IMG/VR virus record: IMGVR_UViG_3300045988_145100
Span: 64,001 to 128,000 of that record
DNA length: 64,000 nt
Origin: a virus
Reading direction: 5' to 3' (one strand)
The translations under genes were made by a program, and so were the position numbers. Below, piece after piece: positions 37,633 to 60,973 of the stretch; position 1 is the stretch's first letter, and each line of letters starts with the position of its first letter. The notes under the pieces were generated by a model that saw only the letters and a list, made by a program, of their open reading frames with translations, had not been told where the DNA came from and did not search any database.

Positions 37633-37634
37633 AT

Positions 37635-45788: not shown

Positions 45789-45802
45789 TTATTTTTCTCC
45801 TT

Positions 45803-46405: not shown

Positions 46406-46434
46406 TTGATTTTTATAAAAAAATATGATATAAT
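46406..46434 (+). promoter_or_regulatory. Consensus sigma70 extended -10 promoter
   Basis: ttgatt-N17-TGa-tataat. Confidence 0.6.
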
Positions 46435-46465
46435 TTATGTAGAAAAGTAAAAGGAGGACATATTT

Positions 46466-47011
46466 ATGCAGGCAAATGAAAAAGAAATGTGTAAAAAGGC
46501 TAAAGAATTATTCACAAAGAAACATAAGCCAACTATTGATGAAGCATTTAACAATGCCGCAGAAAGTTTTGATGTACTCAAAGATAAAATCACAGAAATG
46601 CGCGATTCTTTGAAAAATTTAGATGAAGAACTTTATAAAAATAAAGAAGTAAAAAAGTTAAAAGAAGACCTCCTTCAGACACAGGCGGAATTAGCAGAGT
46701 ATAAAGAGCGTTATTACAATAGCTTCTCCATTACAACATATGAAAATTATGGTTTAGAAGAATGGTGGCAGCATCATAGAGCGGAAGCACATATACAGGA
46801 ACGTGGAGAATCAACTTTAAAACCAAAAGATAGATTCTTTGTATTTAAACCAGGTATTAATGGAACCGTAGCTACTTGCTATTGTGCTAAATGCGCAAAG
46901 ATATTATATTATAACCATAGAGATTTAAACTATGATGAACTTTTAGAATTAATGCGACAAAAGGGTGTTTCATACAGAATAACTAAATATCCTTGGGAAG
47001 GAGAAAATTAA
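46466..47011 (+). CDS. Coiled-coil / zinc-binding protein, tandem paralog 1
   Basis: 181 aa; C-terminal CYCAKCAK cluster. Confidence 0.45.
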   Translation: MQANEKEMCKKAKELFTKKHKPTIDEAFNNAAESFDVLKDKITEMRDSLKNLDEELYKNKEVKKLKEDLLQTQAELAEYKERYYNSFSITTYENYGLEEWWQHHRAEAHIQERGESTLKPKDRFFVFKPGINGTVATCYCAKCAKILYYNHRDLNYDELLELMRQKGVSYRITKYPWEGEN

Positions 47012-47508
47012 TGTCAGGAACCTGTTTTATTAATAATAACCCCACTAAAGTTATATATACAGAAAAAGAAGTAGATGAATCTCTTTTTCAGCTTGAGTGG
47101 AATATGAAGAGACTTTTAAAAGAAAATAATGAACTAAATGCAGAAAATGAGTCTCTTAAAAGTGAGCAATATAAAGACGCGGAACTCTCTAAATTGAAAA
47201 GTGAAATAGATAGATTGAGAAGAATCTTAAATCAGTCTTTTCCAGTAAATGAAAGAGAAAAAGAATCAATAAAAGAATGGTATAAGGAACATAGCGATAA
47301 GATGCATAATGGAAGAGATTTTAATTATGTATATGAATTTACTCCAACAGCAATAGCTACTTTTGGAGATTGTATTTGTACCACTTGCCGCGGAAAAGCT
47401 AGACAGAAAGCTATTATAAACGATAAAAATGGTTTAAGGATAGAACCAAATATAATAAAAGATTATCTTGATAGAAGTGGCGGAGACTTTCAATTTAAGA
47501 TAGAATAA
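46993..47508 (+). CDS. Coiled-coil / zinc-binding protein, tandem paralog 2
   Basis: 171 aa; C-terminal CICTTCRGK cluster; overlaps paralog 1 by 19 nt. Confidence 0.45.
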   Translation: MGRRKLMSGTCFINNNPTKVIYTEKEVDESLFQLEWNMKRLLKENNELNAENESLKSEQYKDAELSKLKSEIDRLRRILNQSFPVNEREKESIKEWYKEHSDKMHNGRDFNYVYEFTPTAIATFGDCICTTCRGKARQKAIINDKNGLRIEPNIIKDYLDRSGGDFQFKIE

Positions 47509-47536
47509 GCGGGGTCTTATACTCCGCTTTATTTTT
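47509..47536 (+). terminator. Rho-independent terminator
   Basis: gcgggg-tcttata-ctccgc followed by tttattttt. Confidence 0.55.
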
Positions 47537-47590
47537 GTAAAAATTTATGTTATAATATTTATATAAGAAAAGGAAAAGAGGTATATAAAT

Positions 47591-48294
47591 ATGACAACAT
47601 TATTAGTAGAGGATAAATTAACAAAAGTATTTAATGAAATTGTAAAAAAGTTCCTGAGAAATTTGGTTGGGATGAGTATAACACAGAAGAAGAGAATACA
47701 GCAGTAATTTCAGAAGCTTTAAGAGATGCTAAAGTTGCGGGAGGCGCATATCGTGGTGCAACTAAAGCTGTTGCTGTTGTTTCAGGTTGTAGTTCTGTTC
47801 TTAAAGTTCCTTATTCTGGTAAATGGGACTATGATGAATCAGTAGACTGTGATTATTTTACAAGATTTGAAGGTGCAGATAATTCTGAAGACCATAACTG
47901 GGACTATTGTTTAACAGAATATGAAGTTTATGAAGCTGCAAAGGAAAATGGATTAGATATATTTTTCCCAAAGACAGAAATCATGGGAGAATGTGAATCT
48001 GGCACGATTATTAAGCAGGAAAGGGTATTAGACTTTTATGAATACTGCCCTATTTCAGAAGATGAAACAATAGAATTTGTTAATTCAGATATAAAATATT
48101 ATGGTTTTGCAGATTCTCAGTGGGTTGCCGTAGCTATTGAAAGATATGGAAAAGCTATGGTTGATAAACTCATTGACTTTTTAGAAAATAATTTTCCTAT
48201 TGTAGTTAAAGATTTACATAATGGAAATATTGGTTTTAGAAAGAATGGTGAGCCAATTATCCTTGATTTTTCGGGCTGGAATGAAGACTGTTAA
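47591..48294 (+). CDS. Hypothetical protein that needs a -1 frameshift at A_AAA_AAG (47644-47650) to be made full length; the zero-frame product ends at 47707
   Basis: ATG 47591 has a good SD. The zero frame stops after 38 codons. The -1 frame is open and coding-like from 47649 to 48294, and has no start with an SD of its own before ATG 47983. Confidence 0.45.
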
Positions 48295-48333
48295 TTTTAA
48301 AAATTATGATATAGGAGGCTATAAAGATATATA

Positions 48334-48507
48334 TGGTCAATACAGTATTAGGTATAGGTATAATAGTTAGTGCTATTATGTTATTAATCTGTTATATTAT
48401 AAGCTGTATAACAACAAATGAAATTATATATAAAGTTTCAACTGGTTTAGCTGTAGCTTCATTAATGTTTATAATGGGCTTTAGTTTAAGTTACGCTGGA
48501 AATTAAA
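48334..48507 (+). CDS. Small membrane protein, 57 aa
   Basis: SD ataggaggc; two hydrophobic helices. Confidence 0.35.
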
Positions 48508-48535
48508 ATTAAAAAGGAGTAGTGTATAAAAATAT

Positions 48536-48910
48536 ATGAATGATAGTACTTTATTAGCGATAATAATTTTGATTACTATGATTATAATAGTAACAATTTT
48601 AAAGTCTGAAGGAAGAAGAATATTTGATTTCTTATGGGCTGTTTGGATTATTTTTGTAGGATTCTTAATTTCATTGGACTTTGTAAAAGGAGAATATTCA
48701 TTAATATTAGAAGTTATTTTCTGGATTGCTGCAATCTTAATCTTATGTTTTGTATTAGCGGCTATTATTTTTTTAATATTATCTTTTATTTATGGTAAAA
48801 AGAAAGATGAGAAAAAGGAACATAAAAGCATAAAGATATTTTATCTATCTTTAATTATTGCTGTTTTATTAAATATCATACTACAGATATTAGGAATATT
48901 TATTAAATAA
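48536..48910 (+). CDS. Multi-pass small membrane protein
   Basis: 124 aa with four hydrophobic segments. Confidence 0.45.
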   Translation: MNDSTLLAIIILITMIIIVTILKSEGRRIFDFLWAVWIIFVGFLISLDFVKGEYSLILEVIFWIAAILILCFVLAAIIFLILSFIYGKKKDEKKEHKSIKIFYLSLIIAVLLNIILQILGIFIK

Positions 48911-48922
48911 AGTGTGCGGAAA

Positions 48923-48950
48923 GGAGGCTCTTATGCCTCCTTTATTTTTA
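48923..48950 (+). terminator. Rho-independent terminator
   Basis: ggaggc-tcttat-gcctcc followed by tttattttta. Confidence 0.6.
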
Positions 48951-48996
48951 TAAAAAAATATGATATAATATTTATATAGAAAAGAGAAAGAGGTGA

Positions 48997-49446
48997 ATGA
49001 ATATGATATCATTACATACTGCACAAAGATTATCTCGAGAGAGTAGTGAGATAACTCTTACAAGAGCAGATAAGCATTTCTTAAAGAAATGTGAAAAAGA
49101 AATAGATAGTGAAATTCTTGCAGCTTGTGATATCAATGAACAAAGATTGTTTATTAAAAGTCTTCTGGTAATTGATAAAGGCTGCTCAGATAGTACAACT
49201 ACAAGTTCTAAAAAGTATTTAAAATACAAAAAACGATTTGAATTATTTCTAACTTTATTAGATAAATATAAAATACAAGGATATAAGATATCTTATACAG
49301 GAGCAACTTATGAGAAATATTATGATTATGATTTTCTATGGGATTCATATCGTTTAAAAGGAATAATTACTAATTTTGAGATTAAATGGGATAAAGACTA
49401 TAATCCTATATTATCTGATAATTTGATAGAAAAATATGAAAAGTGA
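48997..49446 (+). CDS. Hypothetical protein
   Basis: 149-aa ORF downstream of a consensus promoter. Confidence 0.45.
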   Translation: MNMISLHTAQRLSRESSEITLTRADKHFLKKCEKEIDSEILAACDINEQRLFIKSLLVIDKGCSDSTTTSSKKYLKYKKRFELFLTLLDKYKIQGYKISYTGATYEKYYDYDFLWDSYRLKGIITNFEIKWDKDYNPILSDNLIEKYEK

Positions 49447-49456
49447 GGTAGTTAAA

Positions 49457-49654
49457 ATGGCAAGAGATAGAGAGATAGTATGTCAGTATTATATCTGTGA
49501 AGGTCAATGCTCAAAAGGTAGAGAAGGAACATTTAGAAAAGCTTGTCAACATTGCGGCAAGTATTTACCTAAGCGTGGAACTGCACCTGCAAGGGTAGAC
49601 AATCGCCGCAGAAAACTTGAAAAATATTCTAAACACGAAAGGAATGATTATTAA
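49457..49654 (+). CDS. Small Cys-rich protein
   Basis: Start ATG 49457 with SD gtgaggt; CQYYICEGQC...CQHCGK. Confidence 0.4.
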   Translation: MARDREIVCQYYICEGQCSKGREGTFRKACQHCGKYLPKRGTAPARVDNRRRKLEKYSKHERNDY

Positions 49655-49902
49655 TGGAAGAAAATAAAGTAATTACATTATCTTCTCTTGTGGAGTATAT
49701 TATGTCCACAGTACAAGTTTCAGATATGCACATTTGTTTTGTATCAATTAAAACAGATAGAATGTGTAGTCTTGGTTCAGTTAAGAAAGAAGGGTCCAAG
49801 ATTAAATATACATTGCCGCAGTATATAGAAAATGAAAATGCATTTTTGGTTGCTGCATGGTCGTATAATGCATCAACTAACATTCTTACTGTGCGCTATT
49901 GA
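49654..49902 (+). CDS. Hypothetical protein
   Basis: 82-aa ORF with an ATGA overlap. Confidence 0.4.
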   Translation: MEENKVITLSSLVEYIMSTVQVSDMHICFVSIKTDRMCSLGSVKKEGSKIKYTLPQYIENENAFLVAAWSYNASTNILTVRY

Positions 49903-49961
49903 TATTTTTTAAATTTTTTGATATAATATATATAGAAAATAAGAAAAGAGAGGTAACGCAT

Positions 49962-50159
49962 ATGGTATTTGAATACACTTTAGTAAATGGTAATGGAGCA
50001 AGACATACTTTAATTACAGATAAGTTTTTTGAACCAGGTCAGTATGTAAGTCATTTGGGCGAAGTTTGCTATGTTGAAGACTTAGCTGTTGGAACTTCTG
50101 TATCATGTGCAGAAATTCATGAGCAGTCAGCTCTTGATTCAATGATGATTATGTGTTAG
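49962..50159 (+). CDS. Small hypothetical protein
   Basis: Start ATG 49962 after SD aagagaggt. Confidence 0.4.
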   Translation: MVFEYTLVNGNGARHTLITDKFFEPGQYVSHLGEVCYVEDLAVGTSVSCAEIHEQSALDSMMIMC

Positions 50160-50170
50160 GAGGTATAACT

Positions 50171-50392
50171 ATGGAAGACATAGAAGCAAAAAGAATTAGT
50201 GAATATCCTAAGAGACCACCTGAAGATATAGAACAAGGTAAAACTTGTGCAGAACAGACTAACTGTTTAAATTGTCCATGGATATCTGAATGCTATTATG
50301 AAGATTATGATGATGAGGATTATATGGTTTATGGATATTATGATGAAGATGGATTCTATGATGAGGATTATTATGATGGATTTGATGATTAA
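50171..50392 (+). CDS. Small protein with a CxxC pair and an extremely acidic Asp/Glu/Tyr-rich tail; possible DNA mimic
   Basis: SD ttaggaggt; ...CLNCPWISECYYEDYDDEDYMVYGYYDEDGFYDEDYYDGFDD. Confidence 0.4.
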   Translation: MEDIEAKRISEYPKRPPEDIEQGKTCAEQTNCLNCPWISECYYEDYDDEDYMVYGYYDEDGFYDEDYYDGFDD

Positions 50393-50477
50393 AGCTGGGT
50401 AATTTAGCTCAGCTTTATTTCTTTTAAAAAATTTGATATAATATATATATAGAAAATAAGAAAAGAGGTATAGTTTT

Positions 50478-50837
50478 ATGAAAGTATTTATTTATGCAAC
50501 TGAAGGAATGTATCAGGGCTTACATGGCATTGAGGACATGTGCGTAACTGAAATCAATTCTATTGATGAAGGTAATGCTATGGGTAAAGAAATGGCATAT
50601 GACCTTATTACTAATTACGGTCTCGAAGATGAATATGCAATGTCTCAGTCAGATTATGATGAAGAGTCAGGAGAATTTCCAGAGTGGAATGGAGAAGCTG
50701 AAGAGCTATATTGGAATATCTATGAAATTAAAGATGAGTATAAGGATATGGAAACTCGTGAATTAGACAGTATTGTTTGCAATCTTGGACATGAGAGCTT
50801 CATTAAAGAGTATTGCGGAAAGGAGCTTGGTGTATGA
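50478..50837 (+). CDS. Acidic hypothetical protein
   Basis: 119 aa with a high Asp/Glu content. Confidence 0.4.
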   Translation: MKVFIYATEGMYQGLHGIEDMCVTEINSIDEGNAMGKEMAYDLITNYGLEDEYAMSQSDYDEESGEFPEWNGEAEELYWNIYEIKDEYKDMETRELDSIVCNLGHESFIKEYCGKELGV

Positions 50838-51046
50838 GTATGTTCGGAATGGGAGATGCCTTTGATTATATGATTATGCAGAGTGATGATGATGCAAATG
50901 AAATAATGCGTCAATGTAAGCAAGCACTGGAAGCAGGACGAGACCCGCAGCTTTTAATTGAAGAAATAGTAGATAATCAGGCTTATATTAATTTAATGGA
51001 AAATGATAAGGTTAGAATTGTTAATTTGATAAGGAGCTATATGTAG
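50834..51046 (+). CDS. Small hypothetical protein
   Basis: Start ATG 50834 (ATGA overlap) with SD ggaaaggag. Confidence 0.4.
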   Translation: MSMFGMGDAFDYMIMQSDDDANEIMRQCKQALEAGRDPQLLIEEIVDNQAYINLMENDKVRIVNLIRSYM

Positions 51047-51047
51047 T

Positions 51048-53018
51048 ATGGAAAGAATAGATTTATATGAAAAATTAGGTGAGGAAGATATTAAGAAGAT
51101 TTCGGATTATTACCATAGATGGGGTATTCTTGGCATTAATCAGTGGTCAGATGAAATAAATGACTACATTGCCGCGCCAGTAAAAGAAGATATGTATATA
51201 CCTGTAAAAGATTTTCTTGAGAAATGGAGTATTTGTAAAAATACTTTATATAAGTTACTTGGAAATCAGATGATTTATAAAGCTCCATTTACTTATGAAA
51301 AGCCAGAGGATAATGTCTGGAATGAATGTAAAGATTATTTAAGCTCAGTAGATGCTTTACAAATTTTAAAAGGGTGTATCATGGATGGAGGATATTATAT
51401 TCCATCATTTCTTAATTACATCTTTTCAAGAGACGCAATAATTAATAATTTAACTTCATATACTATACTTTTAAGTCCACACCCTGGTAATGTTGATACC
51501 TTAAAGGAAAGAAAGATACCTTCAGGAACGAAAGTGTTCAGAGCTATTGGTAAAATATTAAAATATTGTAATGCGGATAAGTCAACAATTGATTTTTTTG
51601 AGAAGGTCCGTATTAAGATTTCTCTTATCTTAAATGATAAGAATATTACAGGCAATCTTTGTTTCTCAATTCACCCATTAGATTTCATGACTATGAGTGA
51701 TAATAATAGTGATTGGTCCTCTTGTATGTCATGGAAGCGTAGTGGCTGTTATAGAGTAGGTTCATATGAAATGATGAACTCTAATAATGTAATTTGTTGC
51801 TATATTGAAAGTAGCAATAGAATGATGGGATTAAGCTATAATAATGTAGATGCTAAAGAGCATCCATTTTGGAATGATAAAAAATGGAGAAGTTTACTTT
51901 TTGTTAATAAAGATATCATTGTATCAGGTAAATCTTATCCTTATAAGAATGATGATTTTAGTAAAAAGTTACTTGAAGTTGTTCGTGAACTAGCAGAAAA
52001 GAATCTCGGCTGGACTTATAAATTTGGTATTGAACCATATAAAGATATGCTTAATATTAATTCTCTTGATGATTATGCAATTGATAGAGATTTGGAAAAT
52101 AGCAAGGATAGGGATAACTTTATCCCAAAAAAGATTTATTTTACCAATAATGCCATGTATAATGATATGTGTAATGACAATTATTATGGATATTGGTGTC
52201 TCCGTAATCCAATTCATCACACTAGAAAGATTAATATATCTGGACCTGTTGTTTGTATTAGTTGCGGCAAGCCTTTACTTCAGCCTAATGATGATTGTAG
52301 TTATGATGAACCAGAGTGGAATGATAGGTATGAAGATACAGAGAATTTAATCTGTAAAGAATGTGCCAGCACTAAGAAATGTGAACAATGTGGTGATTTT
52401 GTAGGTTCTAAGAATTTATTCACTTTTGATATATCTACCTATGATTCTTGGAATGAAGATTATGACAACGATATGACTATTACTAGATGTAAGAATTGTA
52501 TTAAAGGATACTATATTTGTCCTTGTTGCGGAAAACCTTTTGTTTTAGGTGAGAAGCCTTTTGATATAGAATCAAATATTCTTGCCTTTTATTTAAAAGA
52601 TGATGATGCTAAGAAGTATAAACTTACACAGGAAGAAGCTGAACAGCGAGCATATAATACTAGTTTTTGGAGAGATGAAAAAAAAGTTTCTTATGAATAT
52701 GAAAATCGTTTTAAAGATTTAAAGTATTGTTATGAGAACTTAAAGCCAGAGCATATTAAGGATAATCCAAGAGCTTATGATGTTACAATACCAAAAGGTG
52801 GCAATGCAGAACCTTTATTTATGTGTTCTGCATGTTATCGCTATCTTAAAGCTCATGAGGAAAGAATGTTTATCAAAGGTTATGTATATAGCTATGTTTA
52901 CATGAGCGATATGTTCAATAGTTCTAGAATTACACAGCTTACTTTTGTTAATGATGAGGTAAATGAAAAAGAAGTTGAAAAATATTTCTTTAAGAACTTA
53001 AAAAAATTTGAAGTTTAA
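51048..53018 (+). CDS. Large protein with multiple zinc ribbons, 656 aa, function unknown
   Basis: At least five CxxC pairs (CISCGK...CKECAS...CEQCGD...CKNCIK...CPCCGK...CSACYR). Confidence 0.45.
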   Translation: MERIDLYEKLGEEDIKKISDYYHRWGILGINQWSDEINDYIAAPVKEDMYIPVKDFLEKWSICKNTLYKLLGNQMIYKAPFTYEKPEDNVWNECKDYLSSVDALQILKGCIMDGGYYIPSFLNYIFSRDAIINNLTSYTILLSPHPGNVDTLKERKIPSGTKVFRAIGKILKYCNADKSTIDFFEKVRIKISLILNDKNITGNLCFSIHPLDFMTMSDNNSDWSSCMSWKRSGCYRVGSYEMMNSNNVICCYIESSNRMMGLSYNNVDAKEHPFWNDKKWRSLLFVNKDIIVSGKSYPYKNDDFSKKLLEVVRELAEKNLGWTYKFGIEPYKDMLNINSLDDYAIDRDLENSKDRDNFIPKKIYFTNNAMYNDMCNDNYYGYWCLRNPIHHTRKINISGPVVCISCGKPLLQPNDDCSYDEPEWNDRYEDTENLICKECASTKKCEQCGDFVGSKNLFTFDISTYDSWNEDYDNDMTITRCKNCIKGYYICPCCGKPFVLGEKPFDIESNILAFYLKDDDAKKYKLTQEEAEQRAYNTSFWRDEKKVSYEYENRFKDLKYCYENLKPEHIKDNPRAYDVTIPKGGNAEPLFMCSACYRYLKAHEERMFIKGYVYSYVYMSDMFNSSRITQLTFVNDEVNEKEVEKYFFKNLKKFEV

Positions 53019-53163
53019 AAAAATTTATGGTATAATATATATGTAAGAAAGATAGAAAGCTTCTTTCTTACATATATAGAACTTTTAAGAATAATTGATT
53101 TCTTAAAAATTTTATGATATAATATATATGTAATAAAGATAAAGATAAGAAAAAAAGGAGATA

Positions 53164-53595
53164 ATGATTATGGCAGAGACAGTTAAGATTACAAAGACAA
53201 TGGTTCTTGAGACAATTAAGGCTAATATTGGAAATATGATTTTTGATGGTGATGTTCAGGATTCTGATGTGATTGGATATGTTGACAGCGCAATTGCTCA
53301 GCTTGAAGCTAAGAAGGAAAGAGCTAGAGAGAAGGCAGCAGAAAAGGCGGCTGAGGGAGATGCCCTTAGAGAAGTTGTAAAGAATATTTTAACAGAGAAG
53401 CTTCAGACAAGAGATGAAATTTTTGAACAGATTCCAGATTCAACAGGTGAACTTACAGTAGCTAAGGTTGGTGCTAGACTTTCACAGCTTGTTCAGATAG
53501 GTGAAGCTCGTAAAGAGCAGGTAAAGCGTGATACTCGTAGAGTTATGGGATATGCACTTGCAGCTGAAGCGTCTGAAGAGACTGACGCAGAGTAA
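53164..53595 (+). CDS. Hypothetical acidic coiled-coil protein
   Basis: 143-aa ORF downstream of two tandem consensus promoters. Confidence 0.4.
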   Translation: MIMAETVKITKTMVLETIKANIGNMIFDGDVQDSDVIGYVDSAIAQLEAKKERAREKAAEKAAEGDALREVVKNILTEKLQTRDEIFEQIPDSTGELTVAKVGARLSQLVQIGEARKEQVKRDTRRVMGYALAAEASEETDAE

Positions 53596-53669
53596 TATAA
53601 TATTTTAGTTCTGAGGGAAGGAAGCAGAAATGTTTTCTTCCCTATTTTAGCTTAAAGGAGATGTAATAG

Positions 53670-54545
53670 ATGAATTATGCTATAAATTGGTTTAAAGGTT
53701 TTGCATATGAAGATGAAGTGCAAGAAGTTATTATTAGATATGACCCTTATGAATATGACGCCCTTGTAAGTTCTCCTTCTATACTTATAGATTTTGTAAA
53801 AAGTAAAAGAGAGGATTTAAGAATTGTTGTAGATATAGCGAATATAAGTATTTCAAGTTTTAATACAACAGTGGATATCTTTAAAACATGCTATAAGATA
53901 CACTCTAATATAGCTTTTATGATATCAAGAATAACTAATGGTATTCATCCGGATATGAGAATAATGAAGAAAAATAAACTTCCTTTCTTTTATCACGAAA
54001 AAGTAAATACAATAGATACACTAAATCAGTACATATCTGAAGGCGTTACAGATGTATATATAACTGATGAACTTGCTTTTTCTCTATCTGATATTAGATA
54101 TAATATATGCAAGAATAAAGTTAAAATTAGAGTATTCCCTAATGTTGCACAGAGTAGTGTTAACCGCGCGGATAGTATTAAATCAATTACTAAATTTTTC
54201 ATTAGACCAGAGGATGTTAAGTATTATGAAGATTGTGTTGATGTTATGGAGTTTTTTGGTCCCGTGGATAAACAGAATACTTTATATAAGATATATAAAG
54301 AACAGAAATGGAAAGGTCCTCTAAATTTAATTATCAGTGGCTACAATCCTGAGGACAATATAGAAATAAACTCTTCAATCATACCTACTTTTGGACAGGT
54401 TAGAAAAAATTGCCATAAAAAATGTGGATATACTTCTTCAGGATGTCAGATATGCATTGCCGCAGAACATGTTGCAAGGTCACTTGCGGAAAAGGGATTA
54501 GAATATAAAGAAAAAAGAAAAGAGGATATAGATGACAAAAAATAG
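53670..54545 (+). CDS. Hypothetical protein
   Basis: 291-aa ORF with SD aaaggagat. Confidence 0.45.
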   Translation: MNYAINWFKGFAYEDEVQEVIIRYDPYEYDALVSSPSILIDFVKSKREDLRIVVDIANISISSFNTTVDIFKTCYKIHSNIAFMISRITNGIHPDMRIMKKNKLPFFYHEKVNTIDTLNQYISEGVTDVYITDELAFSLSDIRYNICKNKVKIRVFPNVAQSSVNRADSIKSITKFFIRPEDVKYYEDCVDVMEFFGPVDKQNTLYKIYKEQKWKGPLNLIISGYNPEDNIEINSSIIPTFGQVRKNCHKKCGYTSSGCQICIAAEHVARSLAEKGLEYKEKRKEDIDDKK

Positions 54546-55530
54546 GCTAGAATGGGCATATAACAAATATATAGAAATAGAAAAGAATAAAGATGATTTT
54601 AAAATTAAGACTTTTGTAGACTTACTCTGCTTAAAAGAATATGAATTGCATGATTTACTTGTTGTTTTTTTAAAAGGGTATAAATATAAGGTGGTAGAAA
54701 CAGAGAATTATATATATGCTAAAACTAATAATCCTAAGAGAAGTCATATTGGATTATTAGCACATTTAGATACTGTTTTTGAATTGCCGCCAACAAGAGA
54801 AAGTATGTTTTATGATAGAAGTAAGTCAACAATTATAGGAACTTGCGGTTTAGGTGCAGATGATAGAGCAGGTGTTTATAGTATCATCAGTATCTTGCAG
54901 GCAGGTCTTTTACCTGCAGTTATTATCTTTACACATGATGAAGAGTATGGCGGAAGTGGGGCATCTGCATTTATAGAAGATTATCCAAAAGCAGATAAAG
55001 ATTGTGATTATCTTATTCAATTAGATAGAAGAGGAGAAAAAGATTCCGTCTTTTACAGCTGTGATAATAAATTATTTGAAGAGTATGTTAATTCATTTGG
55101 TTGGGAGACTGATACAGGAACCTTTTCAGATATAAGTACAATAGCTCCAGTATGGGGCATTGCCGCAGTTAATCTTTCTGTTGGGTATTTTGATGAACAT
55201 ATGGACATGGAAAGAATTAATCTAAATTTTTTATCGGACTCTATTGAAAGAGTTAAGACTATGCTGGAAGATAATCAGAGGCTTCGCAGACATGAAGCTT
55301 ATGAATATATTCCAAAGGAATATGAAAAGTTTAATCCAAACAATTATAAAAGTAATTCATATGTTCCAAAACCATTAAAAATGGAAGATGTAACAGAATG
55401 TTACTATTGTGGTCGTATCTTTAAAGCGGGTGATAATAGATATTGGATTGAAGGAATGAATCATGTCTATATGCTTTGCGGAAATTGTAAAATCAAACAT
55501 CATCCGAAATCAACACGCTCATATTTGTAA
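54532..55530 (+). CDS. M20/M42-family metallopeptidase-like protein with a C-terminal zinc ribbon
   Basis: Metal-ligand motifs LLAHLDTV and GLGADDRAGV are characteristic of the M20/M28/M42 clan; C-terminus CYYCGR...CGNCK. Confidence 0.45.
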   Translation: MTKNRLEWAYNKYIEIEKNKDDFKIKTFVDLLCLKEYELHDLLVVFLKGYKYKVVETENYIYAKTNNPKRSHIGLLAHLDTVFELPPTRESMFYDRSKSTIIGTCGLGADDRAGVYSIISILQAGLLPAVIIFTHDEEYGGSGASAFIEDYPKADKDCDYLIQLDRRGEKDSVFYSCDNKLFEEYVNSFGWETDTGTFSDISTIAPVWGIAAVNLSVGYFDEHMDMERINLNFLSDSIERVKTMLEDNQRLRRHEAYEYIPKEYEKFNPNNYKSNSYVPKPLKMEDVTECYYCGRIFKAGDNRYWIEGMNHVYMLCGNCKIKHHPKSTRSYL

Positions 55531-55593
55531 TTGATTTTTATAAAATTTTATGATATAATATATATGTAATAAAGATAAGGAGATAAAAAAGAT

Positions 55594-55911
55594 ATGGCTA
55601 AAGGTGCAAGTAGCAAGGCATATATTGAAGAGAAGTTGTTATCAACTTTCGATAATTCTTTTAGATATGGCAAGGAGATAAGAATTCCTTTAATTGAAGA
55701 TGGTTCTGAAGTACAGATTAAAGTAACTTTAACTTGTGCAAAGACTAATGTTGAGCCAGGAGAAGATACTGCTATTCCAGGCGCAGCAGTTAATATCTCA
55801 GGAGTTCAGACTTCAGCTTTTCCAACAGTAGGAGAACAGAAAATTGAAGCAACAGAAGCGGAAAAAGAAGCAGTTAAAAAGCTCGCTGCAGAGTTACATT
55901 TAGATTTTTAA
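55594..55911 (+). CDS. Hypothetical protein
   Basis: 105-aa ORF with SD aaggagat and its own promoter copy. Confidence 0.45.
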   Translation: MAKGASSKAYIEEKLLSTFDNSFRYGKEIRIPLIEDGSEVQIKVTLTCAKTNVEPGEDTAIPGAAVNISGVQTSAFPTVGEQKIEATEAEKEAVKKLAAELHLDF

Positions 55912-55928
55912 TTTAAGGAGGTGCGGGA

Positions 55929-56213
55929 ATGTTATATCGTTTAGAAGAATGGCAAGGTGCGAGTGGTGTTTGGTACTGTGAGCATACTAGTAGTTTCCCT
56001 GCTAATGTAGAAAAATGGGTGATTCCCGCACGAGTACTTAATATGTCAGTAGATGATTTTCTAAGAATGTTAATAAAAGATTTTAAACCAGATATTGTAA
56101 CTATTAAGAATGATGGTTCTTTTGTTTCATGGGGTTGGAAATCTTTAACCGCAATGAGAAAATATAAGAACTGGATGAATGCGAAATCAAGAGCAGTAAA
56201 TTTTCAGATATGA
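55929..56213 (+). CDS. Hypothetical protein
   Basis: 94-aa ORF with SD aaggaggtg. Confidence 0.4.
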   Translation: MLYRLEEWQGASGVWYCEHTSSFPANVEKWVIPARVLNMSVDDFLRMLIKDFKPDIVTIKNDGSFVSWGWKSLTAMRKYKNWMNAKSRAVNFQI

Positions 56214-56881
56214 AGAGGTGTTACTTAATGTATAGTGGTATGCGTTTGCATGAATATAATATAATGAGATATATAACAAGTCTTGGTTATACTGTTATAT
56301 CTCGAGAGAAAGTAGATTTAGACAGAAGGAAAGTAATTCTTGCATTAGACCAGAATGATTTTGGTCAAAAGAATGATTGTACTCTTGTTAGTGCAACAGC
56401 TTTAATTAAAGAGGTTGCGCAAATAAGGCATCTTTCTACAGAAGGACTTTACTCAATAATCGAGGAAATTGCGGAAAAGTACTATAATTATGATGGAAAG
56501 TTAAAAGGTACTAATCCTCTTGTGATATCTGCATTATTACAGAGGTCTTTAGAAAAGTTTACGCCAAATACGCAGTATAAAGCTAAAAGTAAATTTTTAA
56601 AAAGTGTTCCAATTATAGGTTTTAATTTTGAAAAGATTAAAAGTTATATCAAGAATATGCAGTATCCAATGATTTTAAATCTTCTTACAGATGGTCGAAA
56701 TTATTATAAAGACCATTCTGTTTTAATAGTAGGCGTAGAGACTTTTAAAGTTAAGAATAATAAAACTGGGAAGAAGAAAGATTTAAAATTTTTAAGAGTT
56801 TATGATAATTGGAATACTTCTGTTTCATATATTAATTATGAACTTTTGGGTGTTTCATCAATTAACTATTTTGATATTTAA
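56210..56881 (+). CDS. Hypothetical protein
   Basis: 223-aa ORF with an ATGA overlap. Confidence 0.45.
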   Translation: MKRCYLMYSGMRLHEYNIMRYITSLGYTVISREKVDLDRRKVILALDQNDFGQKNDCTLVSATALIKEVAQIRHLSTEGLYSIIEEIAEKYYNYDGKLKGTNPLVISALLQRSLEKFTPNTQYKAKSKFLKSVPIIGFNFEKIKSYIKNMQYPMILNLLTDGRNYYKDHSVLIVGVETFKVKNNKTGKKKDLKFLRVYDNWNTSVSYINYELLGVSSINYFDI

Positions 56882-56999
56882 TTGATATTTATAAAAATTT
56901 ATGTTATAATATTTATATAATAAATAAGACACAAACAGCAATTTTTTAGCTTATAAGAAAGCACTACTCTGTTAAAGTAGATAACTGTGTCTTGTGTTT

Positions 57000-57073
57000 G
57001 GTCCTTTAGCTCAGCTGGTTAGAGCGCTCGTCTCATAAGCGAATGGTCCTGGGTTCGAGTCCCAGAAGGTCCA
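57000..57073 (+). tRNA. tRNA with anticodon CAT (Met / fMet / Ile-lysidine class)
   Basis: Hand-folded cloverleaf: acceptor ggtcctt/aaggtcc (one T-T mismatch), D-arm gctc-agctggtta-gagc, anticodon loop ctCATaa, T-arm ctggg-ttcgagt-cccag. Confidence 0.6.
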
Positions 57074-57582
57074 TTTAAGAATTTATCAGTTCTTAATGCG
57101 TGCATACAGTATTAGATATGTTGACTTGCTTATCAAATAGTTATAAGTCGTGAGTTACTGCGTTAAAGATGACAAGTTGTATGATAATAGTTTTCTTAAA
57201 GCTTTTATTAGGGCGGCAACCTGCCGATAACAAATAGCCATTTTTTAAAAATTTTTGGACAAAGTAATTTAAGTATTATAAAATATTTTTTATATAAAAT
57301 ACAAACTTGAAAAATATAAAAAAATATGATATAATATTTATATAAAGAAAAGAGGTAAGTTACTACCCATGCTTCTCCTCTATAAAAAAGAAGGTATGCA
57401 GGGTGAGGTTGACGGAGAGCGACTAAGGCTGCGGTTTACCCAAGAGAATAAAATCTCCTACTAGCGAAATCTAGTTAAAACTACCAAATTACTCATAGTC
57501 GTATAACAGTAATTTGATTTTTATAAAAATTTATGTTATAATATTTATATAAGATAAAGAAAAAAATATTTTTCCTCTCTCA

Positions 57583-57653
57583 TTCAAAGGTAGGATGCAC
57601 GCCTGTTAAGCGTAGAATCTGGGTTCGAATCCCAGGGGAGGAGCTTCCAGTTG
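57583..57653 (+). tRNA. tRNA-Asn (GTT)
   Basis: Acceptor tcctctc/gggagga, anticodon stem (c)acgc/gcgt(a) with loop ctGTTaa, T-arm ctggg-ttcgaat-cccag. Confidence 0.55.
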
Positions 57654-57915
57654 CGGAACTGGTTAAATAAAACCGAGTAGTCAGTTGTCAGTAACCTTGT
57701 TAAAACTGTCAATGTTCATATCCGAAGAGATTTCAGTGTTCGGTAGAGGTTATGAATGAAGAATGTAGTGAGTTCGATTCTTGCTTGTCCGCCGTAGTTG
57801 GACACATGGTGGCATTTGAAGTATTCCTTGTTGGTTGATTAAATGAAACATGTTGCCGCATGTGGATTAAAATACCAAAATACCTTGACTATAATGACGG
57901 CAATCATTATAGAAA

Positions 57916-57989
57916 TGCTTGTTAGTTTAAATTAATTGGAAAAACACTCCGGGAAGGGGAGATGTTGGGTTCGAATCCCACACAAGTGA
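57916..57989 (+). pseudogene. Degenerate tRNA-like element: canonical T-arm but aberrant D and anticodon arms
   Basis: ttggg-ttcgaat-cccac T-arm and a pairable acceptor, but a 13-nt D-loop, a 4-bp anticodon stem and loop gggaagg with purines at positions 32/33. Confidence 0.25.
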
Positions 57990-58264
57990 TTTTGTCAAAG
58001 CAAAGACATTAAAACTCGCTGATTATTAGGTGTGAATAATAGTCGTTGGCTACATGCGTAAGAAAAATAGTTCGAGAGAGCTATCGGAGCCGTAGAGGAG
58101 AAAGATATCGGCATATGGATAACACACTCCTAGATGCGAGAAATCAAATTAAAGGAAGATGGTATATGCAGCTAATAGAGAGAGTAAAGAGCGCTAGCTT
58201 GTAGCGAAACAACCTGCCAAAAGTAAGTTTATTGGTTTATCTTACATTGGTGAAAAACCTTTTA

Positions 58265-58335
58265 ATTTTATAATCTGGTTTAGTTTAATGGTAGAACCCT
58301 GGCTTTGTAACCCAGTAACGAGAGTTCGACTCTCT
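58265..58335 (+). tRNA. tRNA-Thr (TGT)
   Basis: Acceptor tctggtt/aaccaga, D-arm gttt-aatggta-gaac, anticodon stem ctggc/cccag (C31-C39 mismatch) with loop ttTGTaa, T-arm gagag-ttcgact-ctctc. Confidence 0.55.
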
Positions 58336-58373
58336 CAACCAGAATTAGTACTTTAGTACTAGAAAGGAATGTT

Positions 58374-58652
58374 ATGAAAATATGGCTTGATGATTTAAGA
58401 AAAGCACCTTGCGGATATGTGTGGTGTCATTCAGTTAATGAGACTATATTATTTATTGAGAAGAATAAAAGTGATATAGAATTAATTGATTTAGACCATG
58501 ATTTAGGTGATTTCGCTAAAGATGGCGGCGATGCTATTTATTTAATGGATTATTTAATAGAAAAGAAGTTATTCTATAAGCTAAATTTTCATACTGCAAA
58601 TCCAGTAGGCTTAGCAAATATGTTAAGATTGTATGATAGATACTGGGTATAA
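58374..58652 (+). CDS. Small hypothetical protein embedded in the tRNA array
   Basis: 92-aa ORF (MKIWLDDLRKAPCGYVWCH...) with SD aaaggaatgtt, lying between tRNA-Thr and tRNA-Ala. Confidence 0.4.
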   Translation: MKIWLDDLRKAPCGYVWCHSVNETILFIEKNKSDIELIDLDHDLGDFAKDGGDAIYLMDYLIEKKLFYKLNFHTANPVGLANMLRLYDRYWV

Positions 58653-58725
58653 GGGGCTGTAGCTCAGTTGGGAGAGCATTCGTTTTGCAAGCGAAAGGTC
58701 GTGGGTTCGAACCCCACTAGCTCCA
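58653..58725 (+). tRNA. tRNA-Ala (TGC)
   Basis: Acceptor ggggctg/tagctcc (two G-U pairs), D-arm gctc-agttggga-gagc, anticodon stem ttcgt/gcgaa with loop ttTGCaa, T-arm gtggg-ttcgaac-cccac. Confidence 0.6.
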
Positions 58726-58735
58726 TTAATCATAT

Positions 58736-58764
58736 TTGATTTTTATAAAAAAATATGATATAAT
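58736..58764 (+). promoter_or_regulatory. Consensus promoter copy inside the tRNA array
   Basis: ttgatt-N17-TGa-tataat. Confidence 0.6.
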
Positions 58765-58929
58765 ATTTATATAAGATATGAAAAAAGAAAAAATGTGAAA
58801 AAGATTTTGTAGTAGCATTAAAAATGACAATATACTAATCAGAAAATCTTTATGCGGAAACGCTCTGTAATTAGTATTTCAAGTTTAAATTAGATTGTTT
58901 GGCGTTAACAATAAAATAAAACGCCACTT

Positions 58930-59010
58930 GCGGGATTGGTGAAATTGGCAAACACATACGATTTAAGCTCGTACGCTTTAAGCTTGTGAGTTCGAGTCTC
59001 ACATCCCGCA
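58930..59010 (+). tRNA. tRNA-Leu (TAA), type II
   Basis: Acceptor gcgggat/atcccgc, TG-gtg-aaattggcaaa-cac D-arm as in bacterial tRNA-Leu, anticodon stem tacga/tcgta with loop ttTAAgc, 12-nt variable arm, T-arm gtgag-ttcgagt-ctcac. Confidence 0.65.
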
Positions 59011-59135
59011 CTAACCTAAGAAATTAAATTGTGGTATAAAGACATGATAACTAAGTCTTGTAAGAGATTATTTTATCTTTTATAAAAGTTTTCTTCTCTA
59101 CTAGTGAGTAACAAGCTTTTGAAGTTATCTTATAT

Positions 59136-59205
59136 GTATCATTCGTATAATGGTTTGTACGCTGGGTATTCCCTAGAAGAGTGAGTTCGAATCTTACATG
59201 ATACT
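59136..59205 (+). pseudogene. tRNA-like pseudogene with a 5-nt anticodon loop
   Basis: Perfect acceptor gtatcat/atgatac, normal D-arm and T-arm (gtgag-ttcgaat-cttac), but an anticodon arm ctggg-tattc-cctag. Total length 70 nt. Confidence 0.35.
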
Positions 59206-59313
59206 TTTTAGGCACTAACAGCGAATTTGATGATTCTAACAAACAAAAATATTTGTATGTAAAATGCTAAAGGCTTTATATCCTTTAATTAATCAATAGT
59301 GTCTAGTTTTTCT

Positions 59314-59385
59314 TGAGAGATAATATAATGGTTAGTATGCCTCTCTGATACGGAGGTCATCCGAGTTCAACTCTCGGTCTCTCAA
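59314..59385 (+). tRNA. tRNA-Ile (GAT)
   Basis: Acceptor tgagaga/tctctca, anticodon stem cctct/ggagg with loop ctGATac, T-arm ccgag-ttcaact-ctcgg. Confidence 0.6.
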
Positions 59386-59586
59386 TTTAACACTAGTCTG
59401 AATGGCGTGTCGCGGCGATAGGTCAGACGAAGATTATAGGAAAGTCTCCTGGCACATAATGAGATACTGCCTATATCAGACAGAAGCGAACTGTCTTTAA
59501 ATCAAATGATTAACTCTTACAGCAAAATATGTAGACAACACTATTTTTAAATAGTTTTCATAATACATACCCGAGTTTAGAAATAT

Positions 59587-59615
59587 TTGATTTTTATAAA
59601 AAAATATGTTATAAT
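59587..59615 (+). promoter_or_regulatory. Consensus promoter copy inside the tRNA array
   Basis: ttgatt-N17-TGt-tataat. Confidence 0.6.
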
Positions 59616-59765
59616 ATTTATATAAGATATGGGTTTATAAGTGGCTAGTAACTTCCGTCTAACTTACCCAGACATAGAGTTACCTTTTATCAAGAAAGTA
59701 AATCTTGGTCGTGCGACTACGAGAAGTTACTCTTTGCCAACTAGAGTATAATATAAGTTGGATTT

Positions 59766-59839
59766 GGCTTCTTCTTCTAATCGGTTTAGGAATCTAGGTT
59801 CTCATCCTAGGAATGTCAGTTCGAATCTGGCAGAAGTCA
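59766..59839 (+). tRNA. tRNA with anticodon CTC (Glu by the genetic code); identity is tentative
   Basis: Acceptor ggcttct/agaagtc, anticodon stem ctagg/cctag (perfect) with loop ttCTCat, T-arm gtcag-ttcgaat-ctggc. Confidence 0.45.
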
Positions 59840-59903
59840 TTCAGATGCGAAGTTTTGATAAGTTACCTCTTTTCTATATGCTAGGATTTTCTCCTAGCAG
59901 CTT

Positions 59904-59975
59904 GGCTCTTTCGTCTAGCGGTTAGGACAGCGCCCTTTCACGGCGCAGACCCGAGTTCGAATCTCGGAAGAGTCA
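59904..59975 (+). tRNA. tRNA-Glu (TTC)
   Basis: Acceptor ggctctt/aagagtc, D-arm gtct-agcggtta-ggac, anticodon stem gcgcc/ggcgc with loop ctTTCac, T-arm ccgag-ttcgaat-ctcgg. Matches the classic bacterial tRNA-Glu pattern. Confidence 0.65.
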
Positions 59976-60031
59976 TTTAATCAAAAATTTTTAAATTTTT
60001 GATATAAAGGTTTTGGTGGATAATTACCACC

Positions 60032-60066
60032 CTCCTTTACTTAAAGATATACTATAAAGTAAGGAG
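60032..60066 (+). promoter_or_regulatory. RNA hairpin that sequesters the ribosome-binding site of the GIY-YIG endonuclease gene
   Basis: 5' arm c032-t042 (ctcctttactt) pairs with 3' arm a057-g066 (aagtaaggag). The SD aaggag at 60061-60066 lies entirely inside the 3' arm, 6 nt before ATG 60073. Confidence 0.5.
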
Positions 60067-60072
60067 TATTTA

Positions 60073-60699
60073 ATGAGTTATATTTATAAAATTGTTAATT
60101 CTATTAACAATAAAATGTATATTGGTAAAACATCATTTCCAATAGAAAAAAGATTTCAAGAACATATTTCAGCTAGTAAAAAAGAAAGATGTGAAAAGCG
60201 TCCTTTATATGATGCAATGAATAAATATGGAATAGAAAATTTTTTCATAGAACAAATTGAAGAAGTTGAAAATGATGATATTGCTTGTCAAAGAGAACAA
60301 TACTGGATAAAGAAATTAAGAACATATGTAGGCTATGAAGATTGCGTAGGTTATAATGCTACTTTAGGTGGTGACTCAAGAAGATTATATGATTATGAAG
60401 AAATTTCTAAAAAGTATATTGAGTTACAATCAGTTAAAGAAACTTGTAAATTCTTCAATTGCGATAAGTTAGTTGTTAATTTAGCTTGTAAAGAAAATAA
60501 TGTAACAATTCTTGATGGTAGGCAAAGAAAACAAGTTAGGAGATACAATATAGATAAGACTGAATATAAAGATTATCCTTCAATAACAGAAGCTGCTAAA
60601 GATATCCCTAATAAACCAATAGAAACAGCAAGAAAAAATATCTCAAGAGCAATAAATAAAGGTTTAGTTGCTTATGGATATTATTGGAAAAGAATTTAG
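60073..60699 (+). CDS. GIY-YIG homing endonuclease (SegB-like, free-standing, inside the tRNA array)
   Basis: N-terminal YIYKIVNSINNKMYIGKT...R...EH...N GIY-YIG catalytic motifs; C-terminal basic DNA-binding region (AYGYYWKRI, NUMOD-like); 208 aa. Confidence 0.75.
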   Translation: MSYIYKIVNSINNKMYIGKTSFPIEKRFQEHISASKKERCEKRPLYDAMNKYGIENFFIEQIEEVENDDIACQREQYWIKKLRTYVGYEDCVGYNATLGGDSRRLYDYEEISKKYIELQSVKETCKFFNCDKLVVNLACKENNVTILDGRQRKQVRRYNIDKTEYKDYPSITEAAKDIPNKPIETARKNISRAINKGLVAYGYYWKRI

Positions 60700-60702
60700 T
60701 GC

Positions 60703-60776
60703 CGCGGGTTGGAGAAGTCAGAATCTCGTCGGACTCATTATCCGAAGAACGCTGGGGCAGAGCCAGCACCCGCTAC
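60703..60776 (+). pseudogene. Possible degenerate tRNA-like remnant (CAT-type anticodon loop) immediately after the endonuclease gene
   Basis: gcgggt...acccgc acceptor-like helix, anticodon-like arm tcgga-ctCATta-tccga, atypical T-loop ggcagag. Confidence 0.2.
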
Positions 60777-60901
60777 TTGGTTTTTCTGAATTTCTTCCTT
60801 TAAAAATTCAGTTCATATAAATTTCCTTTCTGTTAGCGGATTGGTTGACAATAATGTCAACCTTACCCGCTTGATATAAACAAAAGGAAATAAAAATCTA
60901 T

Positions 60902-60930
60902 TTGATATTATATAAAATTTATGATATAAT
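60902..60930 (+). promoter_or_regulatory. Consensus promoter copy
   Basis: ttgata-N17-TGa-tataat. Confidence 0.6.
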
Positions 60931-60973
60931 ATATATGTAACAAAGAAAAGGAAAAGAAAAGGAGATTTATATT

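Follow-up and report, generated by a model that had tools for sequence, protein, structure and literature searches.

Predicted housekeeping-sigma promoters of one family ahead of small genes and tRNA clusters in an uncultured gut phage

The window and its repeated promoter block

The DNA analysed here is a 64,000-nt stretch, called the window below, which covers positions 64,001 to 128,000 of the IMG/VR virus record IMGVR_UViG_3300045988_145100, and the element in question is a block of about 45 nt with the features of a bacterial promoter that recurs in its right-hand part. The window has a GC content of 31%. Its first 32.7 kb carry on the minus strand a phage structural module with genes for the tape measure, the portal, the large terminase and several proteins of virion PHROG families, and the tape-measure protein of 3110 aa matches Pfam PhageMin_Tail, as in a siphovirus-type genome. 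From 43.7 to 64 kb, small open reading frames (ORFs) and 19 tRNA genes follow on the plus strand with a positive GC skew. The portal protein is 59.6% identical to an unannotated human-faecal phage contig, and it shares 38% identity with gut phage Phass-1, 33% with the ~140-kb Enterococcus phages EF1, EF5 and VRE9 and about 25% with SPbeta-like and large Bacillus phages. Its relatives are phages of Enterococcus, Bacillus, Clostridioides and Staphylococcus, and none of the 68 records that it matched belongs to a T5-like phage; a megablast of the 46–61 kb region against phage records returned no nucleotide match. Judged from these features, the source is an uncultured large (~150 kb) siphovirus-type phage whose host is probably a low-GC Gram-positive (Firmicute) gut bacterium.

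The plus strand carries fifteen copies of the block from 43694 to 60946, with a mean density of one per 1.15 kb. A preliminary description of this DNA had listed fifteen strong sigma-70 promoters here, and all of them exist: thirteen of the positions are exact starts of the −35 hexamer, whereas those given as 55541 and 57522 are really 55531 and 57514, and the interval assigned to the family, 46406–60930, omits the first copy at 43694. Following its suggestion of a matrix scan, we built a 45-nt position weight matrix (PWM) from the fifteen copies and applied it to both strands of the window (128 kb). The members scored 45 to 57 bits (36 to 55 bits in leave-one-out runs), while the best non-member reached 29.7 bits (at 41028), the following ones 20, 17.3 and 16.7 bits, and the top score in 100 Markov shuffles was 8.7 bits. 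A generic sigma-70 consensus scan of the array region did not rise above chance (105 sites found vs. 103 expected). The significance belongs to the block family and not to loose consensus matching.

Pairwise identity among the copies amounts to 30–44 of the 45 positions (67–98%, mean 79%), so they do form one family, as had been proposed, although the wording "near-identical" overstated their likeness. The similarity is confined to the block and does not continue beyond it, and copies next to each other resemble one another no more than copies far apart. For these two reasons, recent duplication or gene conversion was rejected as the source of the likeness, and selection on function fits better.

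The block extends from the −35 hexamer to about position +12, with the consensus TTGATtTTTaTAAAAAttTATGaTATAATAT.TATaTAA.AaA, and the alignment of the copies shows no conservation upstream of the −35 hexamer. The UP-like element previously noted, 'TTTATAAAAA', actually lies within the spacer, downstream of the −35. The −35 hexamer is TTGATW in ten copies (5/6 consensus matches), TTGAAR in two (4–5/6) and TTTATT in three, whereas the full consensus TTGACA occurs in none of the fifteen. A slightly sub-consensus −35 helps promoter escape. The spacer measures 17 nt in every copy if the TGn is included; the formula TTGAW-N17-TGnTATAAT given before matches none of them, the real layout being TTGATW-N14-TGn-TATAAT. 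The first 11 nt of the spacer consist to 98% of A/T, arranged as a T-tract beside the −35 and an A-tract next to it. All copies contain TATAAT as −10 hexamer and the TG of an extended −10, which takes the TRTG form (TATG) in 13 of the 15. An A/T-only discriminator (ATATAT or ATTTAT, i.e., ATWTAT) is present in 14 copies and a pyrimidine-purine-pyrimidine triplet (TAT or TGT), centred 7 nt past the −10, in 13, and the 20 nt following this triplet are 82% purine.

Each of these features corresponds to a described favourable state of a core promoter. The TRTG (−16) motif of Gram-positive promoters stabilises open complexes, according to Voskuil and Chambliss as cited in PMC6570832 and PMC3113569, and stable open complexes go along with a 17-nt spacer, an extended −10 and an AT-rich discriminator (PMC3113569). 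A spacer of four regions (a T-rich tract, a low-signal region, a second A/T tract and the Ex region) has been reported, as well as a YRY "start" element 7–8 nt past the −10 and an AG-rich initial transcribed region in Firmicutes (PMC12641261). The block thus reads as a complete core promoter of the housekeeping-sigma (sigma-A/sigma-70) type with nearly every element in a favourable state, and its extended conservation needs no exotic explanation. From this anatomy we infer that it is recognised by the host RNA polymerase (RNAP) and that it is strong; transcription would start at the A or G of the start triplet, 7 nt past the −10.

Transcription units, terminators and a second promoter class

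All fifteen copies are co-oriented with the genes downstream. A start codon with a Shine-Dalgarno sequence follows 28–44 nt past the −10 in ten copies, tRNAs follow 31–166 nt past it in four, and a hairpin follows one (53008). In the long leaders that precede the tRNAs, neither significant structure (folding z ~0) nor an Rfam match was found. Housekeeping elements at correct spacing, in the correct orientation ahead of a Shine-Dalgarno sequence with ATG or of tRNAs, and conserved in relatives (see below), bear out the sigma-70 promoter identity proposed in the preliminary description. The same arrangement speaks against reading the repeats as a non-promoter element acting in cis, such as replication iterons, packaging or partition sites or a selfish miniature repeat. 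A dispersed direct-repeat family that is restricted to one genome segment would agree with such a role; however, all copies lie between genes and point in the direction of the gene that follows, the distance to the Shine-Dalgarno sequence with ATG or to the tRNA is short and fixed, the likeness is restricted to promoter elements, and neither terminal inverted repeats nor target duplications are present. We regard this explanation as highly improbable.

It had also been stated that the copies drive single genes, which holds for four units (43694, 53008, 56882 and 57307); most of the others head 2–4 ORFs or 2–10 tRNAs. Of the 20 downstream proteins, 18 lack a PHROG family, the exceptions being an M28/M20-like peptidase and a member of one PHROG of unknown function. 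The array genes are therefore mostly ORFans and tRNAs, as in early or host-takeover regions of phages.

The units are assigned here by position, all on the plus strand and with the PWM score of each copy in brackets. The first copy at 43694–43738 (TTGATA-17-TATAAT with TATG; 55.8 bits) precedes a single ORF for 109 aa (43753–44082). The second at 46406–46450 (45.4 bits) heads the ORFs 46466–47011 and 47011–47508, the third at 47528–47572 (−35 TTTATT; 52.6 bits) the ORFs 47591–47707, 47983–48294 and 48536–48910, and the fourth at 48941–48985 (−35 TTTATT; 53.5 bits) the ORFs 48997–49446, 49457–49654 and 49654–49902. These are followed by the fifth copy at 49899–49943 (46.8 bits) with the ORFs 49962–50159 and 50171–50392, and by the sixth at 50414–50458 (−35 TTTATT; 45.0 bits) with the ORFs 50478–50837, 50834–51046 and 51048–53018. 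The latter codes for a protein of 656 aa without Pfam or PHROG family, and the part 51569–52022 of its gene is 44–53% similar to a locus of a lineage with 43% GC (L034). Between the first two copies, a small island of opposite-strand genes is embedded in the array (44100–46260, minus strand), comprising the ORFs 44479–45198, 45546–45788, 45803–46006 and 46021–46194 with their own promoter at 46247(−); its part 44486–45407 is replaced by unrelated sequence in both close relatives of the virus.

Copies 7 (53008–53052; 51.6 bits) and 8 (53095–53139; 51.3 bits) stand in tandem. Copy 7 overlaps a perfect 17-bp hairpin (53036–53078; −19.7 kcal/mol, z −6.7), whose 5' arm is the initial transcribed region of promoter 53008 and whose 3' arm is an inverted copy of it, so that the predicted transcript of this promoter starts inside the hairpin. 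The next promoter (53095) begins 17 nt after it, an arrangement kept in both relatives; an attenuator, a processing site and an inversion relic are candidates for its nature. Copy 8 itself heads the ORFs 53164–53595, 53670–54545 and 54532–55530, the last encoding the M28/M20-like peptidase, and another hairpin (53614–53643) is located between the first two of these. Copy 9 (55531–55575; 55.9 bits) precedes the ORFs 55594–55911, 55929–56213 and 56228–56881. Homologues of the 105-aa ORFan encoded by 55594–55911 (45–54% at the aa level) occur directly behind promoters of the same type at two loci of other phages (L025 and L039), which marks its product as a probable conserved early protein.

The remaining copies are associated mostly with tRNA genes. 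Copy 10 (56882–56926; 55.0 bits) precedes a tRNA-Met (56999–57074), copy 11 (57307–57351; 45.1 bits) a 31-aa ORF (57369–57464), and copy 12 (57514–57558; 56.9 bits) heads tRNA-Asn, tRNA-Thr, the ORF 58374–58652 and tRNA-Ala. Copy 13 (58736–58780; 55.8 bits) is followed by tRNA-Leu, a doubtful tRNA and tRNA-Ile. The doubtful one (59136–59205) was called by ARAGORN with the anticodon ATT ("Asn") and stays below the Rfam tRNA gathering score; because one of the relatives (relative B) has a tRNA-Gly(tcc) in this slot between tRNA-Leu and tRNA-Ile, it is possibly a degraded or altered tRNA. Copy 14 (59587–59631; 54.9 bits), a chimeric promoter as detailed below, precedes two tRNA-Glu genes and a gene for a GIY-YIG endonuclease. 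The last copy, number 15 (60902–60946; 48.3 bits), heads an ORF for 106 aa (60974–61294) and a promoter-less run of ten tRNAs reaching to 63939; the tRNA-Tyr called by ARAGORN at 61386–61470 also remains below the Rfam gathering score. No further copies were found in the next 3.7 kb of the other relative, relative A (L010 1–3741). A degenerate sixteenth copy on the plus strand at 41028–41072 (−10 TATCAT; 29.7 bits) is the best non-member of the scan and stands in tandem behind a promoter of a different class at ~40982.

The claim that many copies follow a hairpin terminator was borne out for three of them, at which intrinsic terminators on the plus strand are fused to the next promoter: 47507–47529 (−13.9 kcal/mol, z −4.5), 48920–48943 (−15.7 kcal/mol, z −3.7) and 50390–50417 (−14.6 kcal/mol, z −3.8). 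At each of these, the U-tract of the terminator doubles as the TTTATT −35 and the spacer of the promoter that follows (47528, 48941 and 50414). Two weak hairpins (43679–43693 and 46392) adjoin the promoters 43694 and 46406, and the rest have none. Where a gene group needs insulation, a GC hairpin placed directly upstream with a shared U-tract would yield a compact terminator-promoter cassette.

A second class of promoters, called class B to distinguish it from the block family (class A), is represented by about ten sites in the window with the sequence CTTGACAaa, a variable spacer of 16–18 nt that often contains G/C, then TGnTATAAT and variable discriminators. TRTG is present in 2 of 11 and an AT-only discriminator in 4 of 11 of these promoters. 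They occur on both strands at 28–41 kb, often in divergent arrangement (28029(−), 32671(−), 36122(−), 36313(+), 37643(−), 37727(+), 39167(+), 40805(−) and 41002(+)), and precede the portal gene, the operon of a "sigma-like" gene and the terminase, and the plus-strand genes at 32.7–42.4 kb. Both classes are also found side by side at L009, a locus of a distant relative with 43% GC. Two hairpins lie downstream of three of the minus-strand class-B promoters (elements 36040–36122, 37570–37643 and 40730–40805), first a conserved AAT(T/A)CCGGCGRRGCCGGACG hairpin and then a GC hairpin, to which the 37643 copy adds a T-run; similar elements are present in L009. They have no Rfam match and look like genes for short RNAs (~45–60 nt) antisense to the plus-strand gene flow. 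Just downstream of the 36122(−) promoter and hairpin, about five palindromic units of the type CTAACTnnAGTTAG are arranged with a 20-nt period (35934–36093), which makes this array a candidate for an iteron array (replication origin) or a regulator-binding array.

The coexistence of both classes in the window and in L009, with spacer, discriminator and start region accounting for most of the difference between them, bears on the idea that the class-A block also carries a class-specific signal (the spacer with its partly palindromic TTTTTATAAAAA, the ATWTAT discriminator, or both) for an RNAP-binding or DNA-binding protein of phage or host. Such a protein would turn class A off or class B on and thereby set the timing without a new sigma factor, as has been proposed for T5, in which all temporal classes use sigma-70, the early promoters carry an ATATT discriminator and a phage RNAP-binding protein affects the balance of the classes (PMC7472727). 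The class-A-specific features could, by this analogy, distinguish temporal classes. Spacer and initial transcribed region moreover stay conserved across lineages if sites are anchored on TGnTATAAT only and those forced by the search pattern are excluded (see below). On the other hand, each of the conserved sub-segments can already be accounted for by a generic core-promoter element, the analysis yielded no candidate regulator, and the dyad of the spacer is lost in the variants at 47528 (TTTTTGTAAAAA), 49899, 50414, 53008, 57307 and 60902. Because these copies break the symmetry, a dimeric operator is not indicated, and a palindromic operator in the spacer was rejected. An additional signal of this kind appears rather unlikely to us.

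Class B is likewise relevant to the question of whether a sigma factor or RNA polymerase encoded by the phage, instead of the unmodified host enzyme, serves class A as a middle or late class. SPbeta-like phages, which are distant relatives of this group, encode their own polymerase, and the ORF 31549–32697 on the minus strand matches PHROG 5767, which is labelled "sigma factor" (E 1e-49). However, the block displays the canonical housekeeping consensus with TRTG, the ORF in question heads the structural operon behind a class-B promoter, and the genes behind class A are of the early type (ORFans and tRNAs). We consider a dedicated polymerase or sigma factor very unlikely. As a sigma factor, the product of 31549–32697 was dismissed, its PHROG label being accompanied by no match in Pfam, NCBIfam or PDB sequences; the real start of this ORF is probably an ATG near 32592, behind the class-B promoter 32671.

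Conservation, recombination and recurrence of the block

Two close relatives of the virus were found in IMG/VR, a contig of 147 kb (IMGVR_UViG_3300045988_154566) with 90–98% identity and one of 150 kb (3300014039_000016) with ~86–94%, and each of them has all fifteen promoters at the orthologous places. The block of the more distant contig is 97.3% identical to that of the window, compared to ~93.5% for the 90-nt flanks. Indels of 100 nt or more that separate the window from the two contigs number about nine; promoter blocks are involved in two of them, whereas about seven are not bounded by promoters.

The first of the two concerns the chimeric copy at 59587. In both relatives, this place is occupied by one class-A promoter, a module of ~200 nt and a second class-A promoter, whereas the window contains a single promoter which has the upstream flank and the spacer variant of the first and the downstream flank of the second, with the crossover inside a 25-nt stretch identical between the two. 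Upstream of the junction, the window is 96% identical to relative A and 89% to relative B; the piece downstream (89% vs. 92%) does not distinguish between them. Because the window is nearer to relative A here and the module is present in both relatives, parsimony favours a deletion in the lineage of the window. In the module with its own class-A promoter (L008 4861–5047 and L010 8470–8658, both on the minus strand), no ORF or tRNA was recognised, and it has neither an Rfam match nor a significant fold. The second event is a 240-nt insertion in relative A; it starts precisely where the 56882 block stops on its 3' side, and its far end carries an incomplete copy of the initial transcribed region. 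The other indels do not end at promoters, including the replacement of the GIY-YIG (+NUMOD1) homing-endonuclease gene (60073–60699, plus strand) within the tRNA cluster, in place of which relative B has a tRNA-Cys and an extra tRNA-Met and relative A a different, longer segment. The suggestion that the repeats could mediate recombination is therefore upheld by one clean promoter-to-promoter event, and the promoters are occasional, not main, recombination substrates.

To trace the block elsewhere, IMG/VR was scanned with a 30-nt core (TATAAAAAWWTATGWTATAATATWTATATA), and the other loci obtained were clustered by megablast. The core occurs in 39 stretches on 31 contigs, while the reversed pattern of the same composition had no match, by which a low-complexity artefact was discounted. 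In all, the block is present in at least 27 gut-phage lineages with GC contents of 28–45%, and the ~25 lineages beyond the relatives of the window share no nucleotide similarity with it apart from the ~45-nt block. To call all of these unrelated would be too strong because three of them (L009, L025 and L039) are weakly similar in protein to the window and thus distant relatives at this level. Many of these lineages have co-oriented multi-copy arrays of their own, such as eight copies in 13 kb of a 402-kb contig of 45% GC and six to seven copies each at the loci L006, L025 and L039. Three or more copies scoring above 40 bits are found in at least ten lineages, and at every multi-copy locus of other lineages the copies are co-oriented with the downstream genes. 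We re-tested these data for bias from pattern selection by anchoring sites on TGnTATAAT alone and excluding those which match the search pattern. A TTGA at the −35 position, set off by a 17-nt spacer, occurs in 90 of the 129 sites remaining, and the T-tract/A-tract spacer, TATG and the start region ATAt.TAtatAA are still conserved.

Among species-representative bacterial genomes (596 Gb; 185,579 species genomes), the core was detected in only 13 stretches. All of these are on contigs of gut or rumen metagenome-assembled genomes, several of which are evidently phage, such as multi-copy contigs of 158 kb and 176 kb and a 139-kb contig binned as Methanobrevibacter. Because the core is virtually absent from bacterial chromosomes, the block is phage-borne and not copied from host chromosomal promoters, and mimicry of the latter (e.g., of rRNA promoters) was rejected on the same ground. 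The near-exact block was found in no cultured phage, and a literature search with the exact sequence returned no relevant paper.

These data allow us to weigh the possibility that the cassettes are primarily mobile modules, which serve as linkers and owe their uniformity to recombination, gene conversion and horizontal exchange between co-infecting phages. The clean recombinant and the insertion starting at the edge of a block would agree with this, as would the variable module content of the tRNA and early region between close relatives and the presence of the exact 30-nt core in at least 27 lineages of 28–45% GC without other nucleotide similarity. The lack of closer likeness between adjacent copies and the mean identity of 79% argue against strong ongoing gene conversion, most indels between the relatives do not end at promoters, and several of the "other" lineages are the ones with weak protein similarity to the window. 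Homologous genes standing directly behind class-A promoters in different lineages were compared in 22 pairs, about half of which have a homologous upstream neighbour, fitting vertical descent from a distant common ancestor, whereas the other half do not, as expected for mobile cassettes; this test of synteny is ambiguous between the two. Mobility as the primary property of the cassettes is possible, though we do not think it likely.

Interpretation and comparison with known systems

Taking the evidence together, we consider it probable that the fifteen copies are promoters for the host housekeeping sigma factor, spread over a 17-kb one-directional array of small genes of unknown function and tRNA genes. 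Each copy would direct fast, factor-independent and high-level initiation on the naked injected DNA, with the TTGATW of the −35 perhaps deliberately kept below consensus, and a purine-rich unstructured leader would run directly into a strong Shine-Dalgarno sequence. The resulting transcripts would be the early or host-takeover and tRNA transcripts of the phage, an early timing that we infer from the kind of genes served. As a by-product, the 45-nt repeats would provide short patches of homology for deleting, inserting or swapping promoter-bounded modules.

Several observations weigh against this interpretation. Three copies show only 3/6 matches in the −35 (TTTATT), and an adjacent terminator exists at only 3–5 of the fifteen (three convincing, two weak). 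In the closest relative, the extra conservation of the block is modest (97.8% vs. 95.2–97.5% for the flanks), and only two of the ~9 larger indels touch a block. Finally, class B has the better −35 (TTGACA) together with TGnTATAAT and precedes the portal gene and the terminase operon, so the housekeeping consensus alone is no evidence of early timing or of higher strength. Recognition by a phage sigma factor and a non-promoter role are both unlikely, and the regulatory signal and the mobility discussed above would be additions to the host-promoter interpretation.

In a bolder form, gut Firmicute phages would share the class-A block across lineages as one early-expression cassette, which acts as a recombination linker, as a factor-read switch from early to middle expression, or as both. 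For this reason the full block, and not the hexamers alone, would be kept nearly constant in at least 27 lineages of 28–45% GC. In the linker variant, unrelated phages would exchange modules of promoter and gene through the shared block, and in the switch variant, a dedicated factor would separate it from class B independently of sigma. We deem this reading improbable; if it were true, the block would serve as a sequence tag for early, host-takeover and anti-defence genes in uncultured phages. Already under the host-promoter interpretation, the array delimits a probable early or host-takeover region (43.7–61 kb), whose ~30 ORFans are candidates for host-shutoff or anti-defence functions, and the block offers a searchable tag for early regions of metagenomic phage contigs and a compact candidate for a "maximal" promoter plus leader for gene expression in gut Firmicutes.

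T4, T5, SPO1 and Kayvirus are familiar examples of phages whose early genes stand behind families of closely similar strong host-type promoters, and the class-A array represents an ordinary phage strategy and no new category of element. The T5 promoters (pre-early and early, including the Gentz and Bujard promoters) contain an upstream A-rich region, which has no counterpart in class A. All temporal classes of T5 use sigma-70, and its early promoters share the ATATT discriminator (Klimuk et al. 2020, PMC7472727). The resemblance to T5-type early promoters pointed out in the preliminary description applies to architecture and function: T5 is likewise a large siphovirus with a tRNA cluster, all promoter classes read as host housekeeping-sigma promoters, and the AT-only discriminator of class A is similar to that of the T5 early class, although the ATATAT or ATTTAT found here is not the same pentamer. 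It does not extend to relatedness, since the portal matches only phages of Firmicutes, and TRTG and the T/A-tract spacer are particular to the present block.

The host-takeover module of the Bacillus subtilis phage SPO1 (Stewart et al. 1998, cited in PMC6873191) shares with the array small early genes in short operons behind strong sigma-A promoters with strong ribosome-binding sites in a Firmicute phage. Unlike the present phage, SPO1 is a myovirus and changes over to sigma factors of its own, and tRNA genes are included only in the array described here. No homology to the SPO1 genes (37–60) was detected, consistent with the missing PHROG families of 18 of the 20 proteins.

A parallel family exists in the cultured Enterococcus phage EF1 (MF001358.1), the portal of which is 33% identical in aa sequence. 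The 49 kb examined of its genome contain at least ten co-oriented sites TTGAww-17-TGATATAAT with a conserved initial transcribed region and a Shine-Dalgarno sequence, which are unannotated in MF001358.1 and for which we found no paper describing them. As in the window, this promoter family is located in a region of ORFans and tRNAs, and a few copies, also before tRNAs, share the initial transcribed region TATAATATTTATATAAGATAAAG. EF1 differs by its own consensus of spacer and initial transcribed region (TAATTATAAAGTTAAATAAGGAGG), and the PWM of the window detected no site above 35 bits in this 49-kb stretch (record positions 20000–69000).

The closest described system is represented by the promoter-early stem-loop (PeSL) cassettes of T4-type myoviruses (Arbiol et al. 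2010, PMC2839356; Comeau et al. 2014, PMC4122927). In both cases, many copies of a strong housekeeping-sigma promoter, some with a terminator stem-loop, are present per genome, and they sit in a plastic region ahead of ORFans and end in a Shine-Dalgarno sequence with ATG. The replacement of a two-cassette module by a single chimeric cassette is shared as well, the topology of RB49 ORF192 vs. phi1 being that of 59587 here. PeSL cassettes belong to T4-like myoviruses of Gram-negative hosts, in contrast to the Firmicute siphovirus studied here, and their stem-loop is usually placed between −35 and −10 or over the −10, whereas here it lies upstream (in 3–5 of the 15 copies) with its U-tract forming the −35 and spacer. 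Further differences are that no conserved AT-rich UP region exists upstream of the class-A block and that most indels are not bounded by the cassettes. Because the group of viruses and hosts and the placement of the stem-loop differ, the class-A array is best understood as an analogue and not as a member of the PeSL system. What is modestly new compared to these systems is the occurrence in a Firmicute siphovirus together with a recombinant, the fusion of terminator U-tract and −35, the two housekeeping-type promoter classes and the presence of the block in many lineages. With its recurrence and the one recombinant at 59587, the block would carry the PeSL concept, in which regulatory cassettes act as linkers for recombination, beyond the T4-like phages.

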